The notes beneath the pieces were generated by a model, which saw only the letters and a list, made by a program, of their open reading frames with translations, made no database searches and was not told where the DNA came from. A program made the position numbers and the translations under genes. Shown in pieces: positions 317 to 22,494 of a DNA stretch of 24,046 nt. The DNA is from a virus (Duplodnaviria; Heunggongvirae; Uroviricota; Caudoviricetes), in the IMG/VR virus record IMGVR_UViG_2617270979_000003, positions 1-24,046 of that record, one strand, 5' to 3'. How positions within the stretch are numbered: position 1 is the stretch's first letter; every line of letters begins with the position of its first letter.

Positions 317-907
317 ATGTCTCAAATTTTTGCTTACTGTCGGATATCAACGCTGGATCAGACCACCGAAAATCAACGCCGGGAAATCGAAAGTGCAGGT
401 TTTAAAATCAAACCTCAGCAAATAATCGAAGAACACATTAGCGGCTCAGCAGCAACCAGTGAGCGTCCTGGTTTTAACCGGTTGCTTGCTCGCCTGAAAT
501 GTGGTGATCAATTGATTGTGACAAAACTGGATCGCCTTGGTTGTAATGCAATGGATATCAGGAAAACAGTGGAACAACTGACCGAAACAGGTATCAGAGT
601 GCATTGCTTAGCATTGGGGGGCATTGACCTGACCAGTCCAACAGGAAAAATGATGATGCAAGTAATTTCAGCAGTCGCTGAATTTGAACGAGACCTTTTA
701 CTTGAACGCACTCATTCCGGGATAGTAAGAGCCCGCGGCGCAGGGAAACGTTTTGGTCGACCACCTGTGTTAAATGAAGAACAGAAACAGGCGGTATTCG
801 AACGAATTAAGTCAGGTGTAAGTATAAGTGCCATTGCCCGGGAATTCAAAACCTCGCGGCAAACCATTTTAAGAGCCAAAGCAAAACTTCAGACACCTGA
901 CATATAA
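317..907 (+). CDS. pinR: Serine recombinase / DNA invertase (Pin/Gin/Hin family)
   Basis: 196-aa ORF with N-terminal catalytic-serine motif YCRISTLDQ typical of resolvase/invertase family and a C-terminal HTH-like tail; sits next to the tail-fibre assembly gene as in Rac/e14. Confidence 0.9.
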
Positions 908-1004: not shown

Positions 1005-1580
1005 CTACGGCAGTGCTGGCCATTCAATATCCTGTGCAGTTGACGTATCAACACGGTTCAGCAATACCCGATACTTTTTCCATGCTTCCAGCAACGAGAT
1101 TTCTTCCTCCGTTGCAATTTCCAGATCTGCAGCATCCTGAAGCGGCGCAATATGCTCACTGGCTACCTGCATCAGGTTGTTTTTTGTTTCTTCCGCCTCC
1201 CGGATCCGGAACAGTTTTTCTGCTTCCGTATCCTTCACCCAGGCTGTGCCGTTCCACTTCTGAAACTCCCCTTCCGGCGATAACCAGGTAACATTTTTCG
1301 GTAACGGACCGAGTTCAGAAATAAATAACGCGTCGCCGGAAGCCACGTCATAAACCGTTTTACCCCGATGATCTTCAACGAGATGCCACGATGCCTCATC
1401 ACTGTTGAAAACAGCCACAAAGCCAGCAGGAATATCTGGTGGTGCACTATCGGTACTGTTTGCTGGCAGACCTGTATGAGGCGGAATATATGCGTCACCT
1501 TCACCAATAAATTCATTAGTTCCGGCCAGCAGATTATAAATTTTTATGGTCCGTGGTTGTTCACTCATTCTGAATGCCAT
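1005..1580 (-). CDS. tfaR: Tail fibre assembly chaperone (Tfa family)
   Basis: 191-aa ORF immediately downstream of the tail fibre gene on the same strand, start overlapping its stop; sequence resembles lambdoid Tfa proteins as I recall them. Confidence 0.8.
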
Positions 1581-3484
1581 TATGCAAGCCTCACAATATA
1601 GTTAAATGCGATGTTTTTGACGGTGTTTTCCGCGTTACCAGCAGCGTTAACGGTGATGGTGTGTCCATGTGAACCAATCGCAACGGAGTGCGTATGAGCA
1701 CCAATACCGACAGTATGCGCGTGTGCACCTGCAGATGCTGCTGTGCCGGACAGTGAATGGCTATGATTACCATCTGTACTGGTATTCGCTAACCACCCCG
1801 TAGACATACCTACTGAGCCTTGTACACCCCAGGTATTTTGACCTGAGCTTGTATAACCATATTGATAAGTATCTTTAAAAACACTGGGGTTAAATCGACG
1901 GCCATCTCTATGGCTGTGATTACCAGCTGCATTCGTGCTGCCACTTAAACTATGGGTATGCGCACCAGTGTTATTCGTGGATTTAGTGCCGTAATCAAAC
2001 GACGATGTGGTTTTCGTCCCCAAATCTGTACTGGATGCGCTGGCGCTGTGGGTATGCGATTTAATGCCGTCCTGTTCCTGAGACAATACGGCCCGACCAC
2101 TGGCAGGTTTGCCCTTAATCGTCCAGCCACGCATATCAGGGATCACGCCTGACGGATAAGCAGCTGCAAGTTTCGGGTAAGCAGATTTGTCAAAAGTCTG
2201 CCCCTGCATCAGGGCATAACCAGACGGAACGGTATCTGATGGCCACGGGATTGGTGCGCCGACTGGGTAGCTTTCTGGTGGAAGATTTTTCGAGGTATAA
2301 ACTTCTGCCCAGTCATCCTCAAAACCATAACCGTCTCTTGAAGAACGGTAGAACAGACCACCATTTCTGTAATGCGCCTTCATCTGCAAGGTCCGGCAAC
2401 TTCCGACTCCGGTATAGAAGTTAACCAGAATATAGCTGTCGCCAGAGCGGGTGACATTATAAGCGCCTGATTCGGCATTCCAGGGAACGCCACCATCCGC
2501 ATCGGCATATGTATCCGTTGCCCTTCTGGCAAAAGCAGCCACATGCGCGGCGGTTAAAGTAATATCTTTGGAACCATCAAACTCAACACCAGAAACCCGT
2601 CTTGGCGTTTGCAGCTTTGTTGCTGTTAATGCATTACCGTTCAGACTTGCGGACAGTTTGGTTCCAATAACCAGTTCGCCGGTTGCGTTATCAATAGCAA
2701 ACGGTCTTAATGTATTCCAGCCACCATAAACATCACCTTGATTGGTAAGCAGCAGGTAAGTTTTAGCGCCATCATTACGCCATAATGCCCCATACTCCCC
2801 ACCTATCATTCGAATCTGATTACCACCACGCGCTACAATTTCGTCTGTGGCAAAAAGTTTTTTGCACGACAAGTTATCGTTAACGATTAACGAATGAGAC
2901 TCATAAAAACCACGCCCACTCTTAAAATCAAGGATAACGTCCGCCGCGATACATTCAGTCGCTGGATTTGTTGCCCCAAACTTATAGGTCGTATCATTAA
3001 CAACGAGATCAGCACCAGGTGCGGATATTGACAGGCCATCTTCGATAAACGCAAAAACAGGGAAAGCAGCGCCATCAACATAGAACACAGAGCGCAAATC
3101 ATCGCCCTTATTACTCATCATTATTGAGTGGATGGCTCGTTCATTGTTTTGATATTGCCAGAACATTCCATAAGCATAACGCCCCCTGTCAGTCCAGCCA
3201 CCAGGCATAACAAATCCGTTAAACTCGCAGTTATTCATCGGATCGCCTGCGGTTCGCGTTGCCGTGGTGATAATGACCCTTGATGCCAGTTCGCTTACTG
3301 AGCCAGCAGAACGCATAACAACAACAGGGTAATATTTTCCAGATGTTGCACCTGCAGGAGCGTTAACCCGCACATAACGCATACCACGCTTATCAGCAAA
3401 GTCTGTTTTACTGACCGCGTTAATGTTGTTCAGGAAGCGTCCCTTATTCCAGTGCAACCTCAACACCATTAACCAGTTCACCAA
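1580..3484 (-). CDS. stfR: Side tail fibre protein, C-terminal receptor-binding portion with His-x-His repeats; N-terminal part probably missing or frameshifted
   Basis: 634-aa ORF; C-terminus has [77 protein letters not shown], as in T4 gp37 / lambdoid Stf C-termini. Much shorter than the roughly 1100-aa Rac StfR I recall, and upstream reading frames are disrupted. Confidence 0.75.
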
Positions 3485-7964: not shown

Positions 7965-8552
7965 TTTTCTTCACATATGTCATATAGTAAAGGATTATAT
8001 ATACCGTTGTTTTGGACGCTCAAACAGCGAATCAGATCAAATAAAACGCACATTTGTTAACATTTACACAAAGTCTGCGCGGGATATTCTGAAAGAATAT
8101 CCATAATGTGGAGAGAATCTATTGAAGTGCATGGTGCCGGGTGCCTCCCGGTGAACAAAATGTTCGTGATACCTGTCGGCGATAGAAAAGGTTAATGGTA
8201 TCACCCCACCGCACAGGGGGATTCACCATGCAGGAGTTTTCTTAGCAAACTCACTGCGCGCCCGGCAACTCCCAACCACATAAAATGCGGAGTTTGTGGC
8301 ATTTATGCATATAACTCGCAGGAATTATCTTAAAAAACTGATGTCGATCCGGATTAAAAAGAAGCAGGTCATCATCAGATGACTGGAAAAAAGGAAAACA
8401 AAAAATACTCATCATACAGTTTTGATTGCAGGGATGAGCCTGCTATGCACAATATGCAGAATATAAGCAAGATAAAAATATGCAGGCATATTATTTCGGA
8501 TTTTGTTATTAACACAACCTTTTTAATAATCATTTGGCATACAATAAACCAG

Positions 8553-10797: not shown

Positions 10798-10865
10798 AAA
10801 TATTTACAGATGAAATAAACCCGCCAATCAGGTTAACTGTGGCTGCGTTGAGGATGCATAATACA

Positions 10866-11114
10866 TCAGAGGTTGCGGGGATTTCTCCCCGCTGGTCCTC
10901 TTACTCCCCAAGTTCGTAAGCTGTGAAGACAGCGACCTCCGTCTGGTCGGTTCGGATTCGTACCTCGCAGAGGTCTTTCCTCGTTACCAGTACCGTCACT
11001 ATAACGGTTAAACAGATGACGATCAGGGTGATTAACATCGCCTTTTGCTGCTTCATAACCTGCTTCTCCTTGACCTTTTGGTCGGTAAGAGGCTAATCTA
11101 CGTATGCAAAGCAT
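10866..11114 (-). CDS. mok: Mok-like overlapping reading frame (translational coupler for hok)
   Basis: 82-codon ORF in another frame that starts 58 nt upstream of the hok ATG, spans hok and ends beyond its stop; GAGG 8 nt upstream of its ATG. Confidence 0.45.
   Translation of the reverse strand: MLCIRRLASYRPKGQGEAGYEAAKGDVNHPDRHLFNRYSDGTGNEERPLRGTNPNRPDGGRCLHSLRTWGVRGPAGRNPRNL
10901..11056 (-). CDS. hok: Hok/Gef-family type I toxin (51 aa)
   Basis: Hand translation of the minus strand gives MKQQKAMLITLIVICLTVIVTVLVTRKDLCEVRIRTDQTEVAVFTAYELGE, nearly identical to HokD/RelF as I recall it; absent from the ORF track because it is under 60 aa. Confidence 0.85.
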   Translation of the reverse strand: MKQQKAMLITLIVICLTVIVTVLVTRKDLCEVRIRTDQTEVAVFTAYELGE

Positions 11115-11170
11115 AGATGTGGCCTCAGATTAATGTTAAGCGTCTTGCCGGACGCGTAATGTTAACTGGG
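11106..11170 (+). ncRNA. sok: Predicted Sok-like antisense RNA (approximate boundaries)
   Basis: Plus-strand TTGACC (11070..11075), 18-bp spacer, TAATCT (11094..11099) would start a transcript complementary to the mok SD and start codon; 3' end not defined. Confidence 0.3.
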
Positions 11171-11481
11171 GCTTTTCTCTATCTGCCTTTGGTGTTCATG
11201 CCCGAGGCAGACAGCCTCAAGCACCCGCAGCAATTCTACTTAACTATCCTTTTCCCGCAAATCGTTTTATCCTCAACGCAAATTTCACCAGTCCCCCCAA
11301 CTCGTGTCCCTTACCCTAAGGCTGTTTCCCTCTTTACACAGAAGATAATTAATGTATTATTTTTTACAAACAATCAATTAAGAGCTATCTGTGGGTGGAG
11401 TCGACTTGCGGTAGCTTTTTCTTTTATGCATTGCACACATTCATGCTCTAATATATTCCTATATGTTCAAAAGGACTTTTC

Positions 11482-12414
11482 ATGCACAGCGTTAACTTCT
11501 ATTCATTCCGTGTGTTAACCCACAAGGGCAGCCGAACCAGCAAAAGACTAAACAACCTAGGTTTAAGCGATAAAAAAACAGCATATGAATTATTTGTTGA
11601 GTATTTTAATAGCTATAAAAACACACCTATTGAATTTGGTCTCTCGAAAACAAAGGTTTCTCTTGAACAACACACATCACTCACCTTTGATGCTCAAAAC
11701 CAAGTAATATATGGATATGTAAAGGTTGGGAAATATGGTGAGAGCAGTGAAATAAAAGACGATAAACTTACTAAAATACGTTATACAACAACTATCAACG
11801 ATGTAACTCTCAAACAGCGTTACATTTTAATATTTTTGCCAGACAATTTAGAAGAAGGGATTATAGCATTTCACGCTAATGACAATATTTCTGCTCGCAG
11901 CACACTCTCTGATGCATTACTAGACCACTTGAAAACAAAATATAAACTTGAAGCGAGAATCAATCCTCTTTGCCACAAAAAAATCCCCCAACACATCCTT
12001 GATTCAGAATTAAAACAAATAAAAGCCCAAGGTTACAAAGCACCAAAGGACATCACGGATTCATTCGGAAATAACAAAACAAACATCAAAACCGATTTGG
12101 TAATAAAAGCAAATCAAGGCGTATTTGGTAGTTTTAAAGACTTAAAAGACAAAAAACTAGGAAATATAATAGAAATAATTGAAGATAAGTGTGACGCAAT
12201 AAAAGTTAGTTTACAATTAGGCAATAGAACAGTCATTTTTAATTACGACACCATCTTAAGAAAAGGAATTTCTGCCGAATTAGATGATAACGACTTAAAC
12301 ATAAACGCATCTACAGGAATCCCCGATCTTAAAGCACTTCATGACACTGTTAAAATCATTGCGAATGATATACTAAGTGAGTTACATAGTGGTAATGGGG
12401 GATTAAAAATATGA
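11482..12414 (+). CDS. Hypothetical soluble protein (310 aa), first gene of an A+T-rich two-gene cassette
   Basis: Long ORF with AAGGA 6 nt upstream of the ATG; K/N/I/D-rich composition; no predicted TM segment; no catalytic motif I recognise. Confidence 0.7.
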   Translation: MHSVNFYSFRVLTHKGSRTSKRLNNLGLSDKKTAYELFVEYFNSYKNTPIEFGLSKTKVSLEQHTSLTFDAQNQVIYGYVKVGKYGESSEIKDDKLTKIRYTTTINDVTLKQRYILIFLPDNLEEGIIAFHANDNISARSTLSDALLDHLKTKYKLEARINPLCHKKIPQHILDSELKQIKAQGYKAPKDITDSFGNNKTNIKTDLVIKANQGVFGSFKDLKDKKLGNIIEIIEDKCDAIKVSLQLGNRTVIFNYDTILRKGISAELDDNDLNINASTGIPDLKALHDTVKIIANDILSELHSGNGGLKI

Positions 12415-12965
12415 ACAAGATTAACGTAATGAGTGTAATAAAAAAACATTACACAACAATGTCGGATCAACGCGGAAATATTTTACTCGAAGACATCGCA
12501 ATACACTTCATTATTCCTCTTACATTATCATTAATCATATGTTTTACCTATGGGATAATGAAAACCTCTATCGCATCTGTTTTTGTTAACTTTGGAGCAA
12601 TTACTACCGCACTGTTAATGAGCGCGGTTATTATGATCTACGATCAAAAACAAAAAACTGTATTTAAAATTTCAGACATTGAGGAAAACAACAAACCACG
12701 TTCAAATCTAATAATTTTAAATAATAATAAAACCGTATATGAGCAATTATGTCACAATGTTTCTTATGCTATATTAACATCTGTAGCGTTAGTTATTTTT
12801 TCGGTTGCAATATATTTTCTCCCAGAAACCCCAAGTGAATTAAAAAAATGGTATTTCGCAACCCCTGCTTACATAATCAGTTATTTAGCATACTCATCCT
12901 TCTTTTTTACCGTAGTAACATTCTTGATGGTTATAAAAAGATTTAGCACAATATTAGATAGTTAA
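12411..12965 (+). CDS. Hypothetical four-helix membrane protein (184 aa), second gene of the cassette
   Basis: Start overlaps the upstream stop (ATGA at 12411..12414); four hydrophobic segments at about residues 28-50, 55-77, 117-137 and 150-176. Confidence 0.7.
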   Translation: MNKINVMSVIKKHYTTMSDQRGNILLEDIAIHFIIPLTLSLIICFTYGIMKTSIASVFVNFGAITTALLMSAVIMIYDQKQKTVFKISDIEENNKPRSNLIILNNNKTVYEQLCHNVSYAILTSVALVIFSVAIYFLPETPSELKKWYFATPAYIISYLAYSSFFFTVVTFLMVIKRFSTILDS

Positions 12966-22305: not shown

Positions 22306-22494
22306 ATGTATAAAATTACCGCCACTATTGAAAAGGAAGGTGGCACTCCTACTAACTGGACAAGATATTCAAAATCTAAACTAACGAAATCAGAATGCGA
22401 AAAAATGCTCTCAGGTAAAAAAGAAGCAGGCGTTTCCAGAGAGCAGAAAGTAAAACTGATAAATTTTAATTGCGAGAAACTTCAGTCCTCGTGA
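22306..22494 (+). CDS. ydaC: YdaC-like small protein
   Basis: ORF MYKITATIEKEGGTPTNWTRYSKSKLTKSECEKMLSGKKEAGVSREQKVKLINFNCEKLQSS with GGAGG 5 nt upstream of this ATG; alternative in-frame ATG at 22294. Confidence 0.55.
   Translation: MYKITATIEKEGGTPTNWTRYSKSKLTKSECEKMLSGKKEAGVSREQKVKLINFNCEKLQSS

Follow-up and report, generated by a model that had tools for sequence, protein, structure and literature searches.

The question raised by this locus is whether a short reading frame on the minus strand of a Caudoviricetes virus record is an isolated toxin gene, a relic, or part of a complete hok/mok/sok type I toxin-antitoxin module that could still operate. The window, by which we mean the whole stretch of DNA that was analyzed, consists of 24,046 nucleotides (positions 1 to 24,046 of IMG/VR record IMGVR_UViG_2617270979_000003), and all coordinates below refer to it. 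We estimate a probability of about 90% that positions ~10818 to 11260 contain a complete module of this type, which a Rac-like, lambdoid prophage of E. coli carries as a moron. This reading is based on sequence homology, open reading frames (ORFs), predicted alternative folds and covariation, from which we infer that both RNAs are transcribed, that the mRNA is processed at its 3' end, that Hok is toxic and that the locus has a biologic role. The locus is an intact, ordinary member of a thoroughly described family, and in that respect is already known.

A hok/mok/sok interpretation had been proposed in a first-pass annotation of the window, and it is supported at the level of sequence, since the defining parts that can be checked in silico are all present and intact. 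No IS element, frameshift or stop codon that disrupts any of these elements was found in the window locus. The interval originally assigned to the module was 10866..11170. The features listed within it do lie where they were placed, but the functional unit overshoots this interval on both sides. Its limits are the hok promoter (11233..11260) at one end, and the fold-back inhibitory element (fbi, 10841..10853) followed by a terminator-like hairpin (10818..10834) at the other.

The hok toxin ORF (10901..11056, minus strand) was found in the ORF listing and by Pfam and PHROG searches, and its translation is exactly the 51-aa Hok-family peptide that had been quoted. The peptide matches Pfam family PF01848 (HOK_GEF) over the full 42-position model (74.4 bits, cut-off 22; E=5.3e-21), as well as PHROG 251, "MokW-like host killing" (E=3.9e-30). 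The NCBIfam Hok subfamily and HokA models matched it below their curated cut-offs only (43.7 vs 73 and 40 vs 89, respectively). Its amino acid identity is 90% to K-12 HokD, 84% to HokW and 55% to R1-type Hok. A Shine-Dalgarno (SD) sequence for hok, AAGGAG (11066..11071, minus strand), was read from the sequence and is conserved in an alignment of 51 related loci that is described below.

One codon of hok deserves separate mention. The motif recognized in editing by TadA is UACG. Such a motif occurs at Tyr47 (10915..10918, minus strand), and conservation together with the analogy to K-12 hokD makes it a candidate site of A-to-I editing, with a change of Tyr to Cys. The sequence TACGAA, which encodes Tyr47-Glu48 (10913..10918, minus strand), is invariant in all 51 of the diverged loci, even at third codon positions. 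In K-12 hokD, Tyr-to-Cys RNA editing has been reported at the codon that aligns with Tyr47 (PMC5630033). By analogy, the window Hok would be edited at Tyr47, and the genome-encoded toxin may perhaps acquire its second cysteine only through RNA editing.

To the 5' side of hok, a match to RF01794 was detected in an Rfam search of the window, a check that the first-pass annotation had suggested. The match (11051..11226, minus strand) has a score of 103.9 bits (gathering score, 59; E=6.5e-23) and spans the full 157-position model. It lies on the hok-sense strand and extends over the mRNA from its start as far as the hok AUG, so that the model corresponds to the hok leader. Although RF01794 is named "sok", matches to the family mark the hok leader and not the Sok RNA strand; Sok is the reverse complement of the middle part of the model.

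Position 1 of the RF01794 model aligns to 11226, and this is the predicted 5' end of the hok mRNA. An RNA of 392 nt that begins there and ends at 10835 has a minimum-free-energy fold of -149.3 kcal/mol (z=-6.7 relative to shuffles), in which the two ends pair. Given the Rfam E-value and this fold z-score, the hok/mok/sok features are far beyond chance. A coincidental origin, in which a small ORF and hairpins happen to share an intergenic spacer, would be suggested by nothing but the size of the ORF. Against it stand the same Rfam and fold scores, a Pfam E-value of 5e-21, and matching DNA in 4748 of 5426 complete E. coli genomes. We regard this explanation as already refuted and assign it a negligible probability.

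The predicted full-length hok mRNA is ~386 nt (10841..11226, minus strand), with its 5' end placed by homology and its 3' end taken as the end of fbi. Upstream of it is a putative minus-strand promoter, which consists of a -35 hexamer, TTGCGG (11255..11260), and a -10 hexamer, TAGAAT (11233..11238). The former was read from the sequence, lies 16 nt upstream of the latter, and is the same in phage 933W. The latter is 6 nt upstream of a conserved GGG start, and a TAnnnT hexamer is conserved at its position throughout the 51-locus alignment.

Within this mRNA, an 82-codon frame resembling mok had been noted, and the details given for it are correct: its ATG precedes that of hok by 58 nt, and it ends downstream of hok. 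Its stop is a TGA that lies 35 nt past the hok stop. This leader ORF (10866..11114, minus strand), which is present in the ORF listing, is in the +1 frame relative to hok, and its start at 11114 aligns with the annotated mokW start of 933W. A mok SD sequence, GAGG (11123..11126, minus strand), lies 8 nt upstream of the mok ATG and is conserved in the alignment. The predicted Sok antisense RNA is 71 nt long (11106..11176, plus strand), as mapped from the sokW misc_RNA feature of 933W, and overlaps the mok start by 9 nt. A plus-strand antisense unit that covers the mok SD and ATG had been predicted, and is retained here, except that its predicted 3' end is at ~11176 rather than at 11170.

Evidence for Sok is at the level of sequence and has three components: a base-for-base map onto the annotated 71-nt sokW, a fold with a tail, a hairpin and a U-run, and promoter hexamers. 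The predicted fold (-28.6 kcal/mol; z=-4.6) begins with 15 unpaired nt at the 5' end, continues with a long hairpin and ends in UUUU. A plausible antisense promoter on the plus strand had also been proposed, and putative hexamers do occur where the 933W sokW promoter lies. The -35 hexamer, TTGACC (11070..11075, plus strand), is in a region homologous to that upstream of sokW, and is separated by an 18-nt spacer from the -10 hexamer, TAATCT (11094..11099, plus strand). The latter has the TAnnnT form, matches the consensus at three of six positions, and precedes the predicted start (11106) by 6 nt. Both the hok and the Sok promoter were placed by homology. Neither was listed in a simple promoter/terminator scan, and each has one hexamer that matches the consensus at only three of six positions.

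The presence of this leader also bears on whether hok might be an orphan without antisense control, located at the tail of another operon as hokD (relF) is behind relBE in Qin. The peptide is indeed 90% identical to K-12 HokD, and RefSeq calls close relatives hokD. However, the first-pass annotation had contrasted the locus with the Qin relBE-hokD operon, and our alignment bears this out: homology to K-12 hokD begins only ~15 nt upstream of the hok ATG, because relBE takes the place of the leader in K-12. The two loci share homologous sequence in the hok SD, the ORF, the 3' stem-loop and the fbi region. Missing from K-12 hokD are tac, ucb, the mok start and the Sok unit in its entirety; these make up exactly the full leader that is found here, and the window locus represents the complete form. 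Also, as had been stated, no relBE-sized ORF precedes hok in the window, nor does any other same-strand ORF occur upstream. In the region 11227..11481 the ORFs are short, apart from a frame of 133 aa overlapping Sok, and the next gene beyond the hok leader starts at 11482 and is divergent. The window locus does not belong to the Qin relBE-hokD type. Because of the point at which the K-12 homology begins, we consider the orphan explanation refuted, and very improbable overall. The Rac-like prophage studied here carries a complete, regulated module of the hokD/hokW type, whereas Qin of K-12 keeps a truncated hokD.

A complete module is expected to contain the elements of an RNA switch, and these were sought in predicted folds and in the alignment. 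The translational activator element (tac), GGGUGCUUGAGG, is located at 11215..11226 (minus strand) and was identified by both approaches. It is followed by a conserved 5' leader hairpin (11179..11214, minus strand; helix 3), which is part of the Rfam model structure, is 92% paired over the 51 loci, and has three pairs that are changed on both sides. Next is ucb, an anti-SD element with the sequence AAGCCCC (11168..11174, minus strand), which is nearly invariant and can be the partner of either the mok SD or tac. Downstream of hok, we confirmed the 7-bp G+C hairpin that had been noted, GCGGGGA-GAAA-UCCCCGC at 10892..10875. This 3' GC stem-loop with a GAAA loop (10875..10892, minus strand; helices 19-20 of the folds) is 95% paired across the 51 loci, with compensatory changes in four pairs. 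The first-pass annotation had presented it in the context of an mRNA 3'-fold arrangement. The hairpin is present, but it is not the fold-back element; the true fbi, CCUCAACGCAGCC (10841..10853, minus strand), is further downstream, outside the interval originally assigned to the module. A terminator-like hairpin followed by a U-rich tail (10818..10834, minus strand), which was listed by the scan, would then end the locus.

In the predicted fold of the full-length RNA, the first 11 nt (tac) pair with 10853..10841 (fbi), and this pairing is seen in both the minimum-free-energy and the centroid structure. In the same fold, ucb (11174..11168) pairs with the GAGG of mok and therefore masks the mok SD. 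When the RNA is instead made to end just after the GC stem-loop, tac is predicted to pair with ucb, as it does in the RF01794 structure. These alternative tac-fbi and tac-ucb folds, as predicted, reproduce the published switch of R1 hok mRNA (PMC9841398). According to mutagenesis of R1, the last stem-loop of the processed mRNA shields its 3' end from 3' exonucleases (PMC9841398), and the GC stem-loop is expected to have this role in the window locus.

Support for these structures from comparative data was assessed with 129 related loci gathered from viral and genome collections, of which the 51 that differ by more than 4% were aligned. When the window fold was imposed on this alignment, 84% of cells were paired, compared with 37% to 43% when partners were slid, although the structure used for counting pairs was derived from the window sequence, itself one of those aligned, which favors it over the slid controls. 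A total of 39 pairs were changed on both sides, a number that none of 500 shuffles reached. The tac-fbi pair at columns 46/465 covaries, with U-A in 32 loci and C-G in 12, and covariation was also seen in the Sok hairpin and the 3' stem-loop. Most positions of tac are invariant or nearly so in the 51-locus alignment. This observation is independent support for the element; in a second set, of 72 loci of the hokD/hokW clade, tac has zero column entropy by construction, as those loci were selected for the exact motif.

The closest characterized relative of the locus is hokW/mokW/sokW of the Stx2 phage 933W, also found in the Sakai prophage Sp5. The 933W locus is 89.6% identical over 420 nt, with coordinates that map one to one. 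Both loci have their elements in one order, are identical in tac, ucb and the Sok hairpin/target, and are prophage-borne morons. The two loci differ in their neighboring phage genes, in a C-to-G change in the window fbi, in the Sok 5' tail (GCAAAGCAUAGAUGU in the window vs GUUCAGCAUGGAUUG in 933W) and in mok. Specifically, mokW starts 57 nt upstream of hokW, is in frame with it, has the same stop and comprises 70 codons, whereas the window mok has an offset of 58 nt, is in the +1 frame and comprises 82 codons. In Sp5, HokW is toxic and sokW suppresses this toxicity, with an antitoxic activity that partly needs RNase III and Hfq (Takada et al. 2021, PMC8621323). Mutations around the -10 of the sokW promoter, which were meant to repress sokW transcription, unmasked the toxicity of HokW (PMC8621323).

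The archetype of the family, parB of plasmid R1, follows the same logic, with tac/fbi and ucb/mok-SD pairings, translational coupling of mok and hok, a cis-antisense Sok and a 3' stem-loop after the hok stop. It differs from the window locus in its setting (a conjugative plasmid vs a chromosomal prophage) and in the length of mok (70 vs 82 codons). The Sok hairpin of the window has ~18 nt more than the Rfam consensus. The locus hokC (gef)/mokC/sokC of K-12 has the same architecture, and sokC, at 59 nt, overlaps the mokC start by 9 nt, as is predicted for Sok here. The mokC frame has a 57-nt offset, is in frame with hokC and shares its stop, and a copy of IS186 ends 20 bp downstream of that shared stop.

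As an R1-type locus for comparison, we used that of IncFII plasmid L135 (NZ_CP128973.1, 343..559), whose Hok is a 100% match to what we take to be the Hok of R1. RefSeq annotates only a shortened CDS in this locus, at 458..559. The L135 mok starts 57 nt upstream of hok and is in frame, unlike mok of R1, in which the mok AUG is at 116-118 and the hok AUG at 174-176, giving the same 58-nt, out-of-frame offset as in the window (PMC9841398). The mok frame therefore varies even among plasmid copies.

Among 116 unique loci, the mok offset is 57 nt and in frame in 93, and it is 58 nt in 13, a number that includes one artefact, a damaged locus in which the match is shifted (L127). Loci with the 58-nt offset mostly have a GACC/GGUC leader stem in common, and this stem occurs in Kluyvera too. 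The length of mok in this group ranges from 55 to 82 codons. We considered the possibility that a recent 1-nt insertion broke an in-frame mok in the window, and rejected it because the CCGACC-loop-GGUC variant with a 58-nt offset is found in diverged E. coli and Kluyvera loci. A fresh frameshift is also contradicted by the 58-nt offset of R1 itself. Because R1 has this offset, and because translation of mok past the hok start is dispensable in R1 (PMC9841398), the out-of-frame mok is a neutral variant. Another feature of the long mok is that its stop (10866..10868) is positioned past the 3' stem-loop. Once the mRNA has been trimmed to its active form, translation of mok might run off the end without encountering a stop codon, although this is less likely than the reading of the hypervariable patch that is given below.

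By homology with R1 and with hokW-sokW of Sp5, the module would be expected to work as follows. A weak promoter would produce the ~386-nt hok mRNA. Pairing of its 5' tac with fbi at the other end, followed by masking of the mok ribosome-binding site by ucb, would keep the full-length RNA from being translated and from binding Sok. Once slow trimming from the 3' end had reached the GC stem-loop and removed fbi, tac would pair with ucb and the mok start region would be exposed. Ribosomes on mok would then open the hok start and allow synthesis of the 51-aa membrane toxin. As long as the abundant but unstable 71-nt Sok is supplied, it would pair with the mok start region and block translation of mok directly and of hok indirectly, and RNase III would cut the duplex. 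The supply of Sok could end through loss of the prophage, through a halt of transcription in the host or on prophage induction, and the stable pool of mRNA would then be translated, resulting in membrane damage.

Whether the module still functions in this manner is less certain than its identity. We judge the hok/mok/sok module of the window to be probably functional. Toxicity has been established for HokW, which is 84% identical (PMC8621323), and for HokD, which is 90% identical (bioRxiv 10.1101/2025.08.07.668861). The main alternative is that the locus is a real hok/mok/sok homologue that is silent or decaying, a harmless relic like the chromosomal hok loci of K-12. Four K-12 hok toxins are reported to be inactive (PMC5630033), and chromosomal hokA, hokB and hokC are described as lacking post-segregational killing, at least in the passage of bioRxiv 10.1101/2025.08.07.668861 that cites the earlier work. 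However, 42 of 45 Hok homologues tested were toxic, regardless of localization (bioRxiv 10.1101/2025.08.07.668861).

Within the locus itself, both promoters are weak by consensus, and the C-to-G change in fbi (position 10844; GCAGCC vs GCACCC) introduces one G.G mismatch into the tac-fbi duplex, as a relic might show. This mismatch weakens the duplex by ~4 kcal/mol relative to the clade consensus (-15.2 vs -19.3 kcal/mol), but leaves it as stable as that of the R1-type plasmid locus (-15.8 kcal/mol). Every element is intact in the window, and the Sok hairpin/target is identical to that of 933W, whose Sp5 counterpart, hokW-sokW, functions (PMC8621323). Moreover, the allele is kept at 99.6% to 99.7% identity in at least 10 sequenced strains. 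A silent relic is thus in our view unlikely, and a functional module remains the preferred reading.

Decay is clear in some loci with the same or nearly the same Hok, which would be in keeping with a relic. Three IMG/VR prophage contigs (L007, L008 and L009, at ~2821..3235) have such a Hok together with leaders that look decayed, with GGGG as the mok SD and AAGAAG as the hok SD. In L007 and L009, the 3' region that contains fbi has been replaced. Judged from their sequences, these three contigs suggest that prophage hok loci undergo both mosaic recombination and decay. Separately, hok loci that are 91% to 93% identical to the E. coli type were found in contigs of 275 to 431 bases labeled Acinetobacter idrijaensis and Xanthomonas pisi (L103 and L105), and another such hok locus is in a record labeled "Actinobacillus phage" (PP818812.1). 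These three probably reflect contamination or mislabeled hosts.

The chromosomal setting is consistent among near-identical sequences. A segment of 701 bases around the locus is 99.6% to 99.7% identical to chromosomes of at least 10 E. coli strains, which come from frog, pig, poultry, human and wastewater sources. In one of these, ET201 (NZ_CP100994.1), the locus lies within a Rac-like prophage that also carries recET, ralR, kilR, sieB, ydaT, ydaV, trkG and essD/rrrD, and the hok CDS is flanked by a DUF1367 gene on one side and by two divergent hypothetical genes on the other. KV7 is another strain with this prophage. In Rac of K-12, ydaW is followed directly by rzpR and trkG; everything from the DUF977 gene up to the lysis genes is missing, and with it hok/sok and the adjacent cassette.

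The locus had been described as unannotated, which holds for mok and sok, as these features are absent from the near-identical genomes. It does not hold for hok, since RefSeq annotates the identical CDS as a "Hok/Gef family protein" (WP_021554378.1), and the 89.6%-identical locus of 933W already has mokW, hokW and sokW features (GenBank AF125520.1). The annotation of the record should gain mok and Sok features, and the locus should be stretched to tac and fbi; beyond annotation, the significance is small. For those engineering or curing the prophage, the practical point is that it probably carries an active killer module.

For the prophage, the module could serve in retention, in keeping other phages out or, as has been reported for Sp5, in assisting lysis once the prophage is induced. 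In Sp5, hokW-sokW roughly doubles phage release after mitomycin C (PMC8621323), and the module in the window may similarly add to lysis after induction.

Variation within the locus is concentrated in a single hypervariable patch at 11107..11116. Among the 72 loci of the hokD/hokW clade, mean column entropy is 0.91 bit in the patch vs 0 to 0.47 bit elsewhere in the locus, and about 0.4 bit in flanking non-coding DNA. On one strand the patch corresponds to the first codons of mok, and on the other to the unpaired 5' tail of Sok. One tentative and somewhat doubtful explanation is that diversifying selection keeps the Sok of each prophage specific for its own hok mRNA. If so, several hok/sok copies in one cell could avoid cross-silencing. 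Complete E. coli genomes have a median of two matching places per genome and a maximum of 10.

Beside the hok leader is a divergent cassette of two genes (11482..12965, plus strand) that encode proteins of 310 aa and 184 aa, the second of which is rich in hydrophobic stretches. The G+C content of the cassette is 0.29 to 0.35, compared with ~0.50 in its flanks. Searches of both genes with Pfam and PADLOC gave no match, and the corresponding PHROGs, 15676 and 15250, are of unknown function. Strain F9792 has a gene pair of the same size in the same slot beside hokD. The cassette looks like an uncharacterized moron, possibly for defense or exclusion.

Three further minus-strand matches above the gathering score were found in the Rfam search of the window: IS009 (1039..1237), STnc100 (8075..8261) and RalA (22312..22490). 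Because RalA is the RNA antitoxin of the type I pair RalR/RalA, its presence marks a second module of this type in the window.
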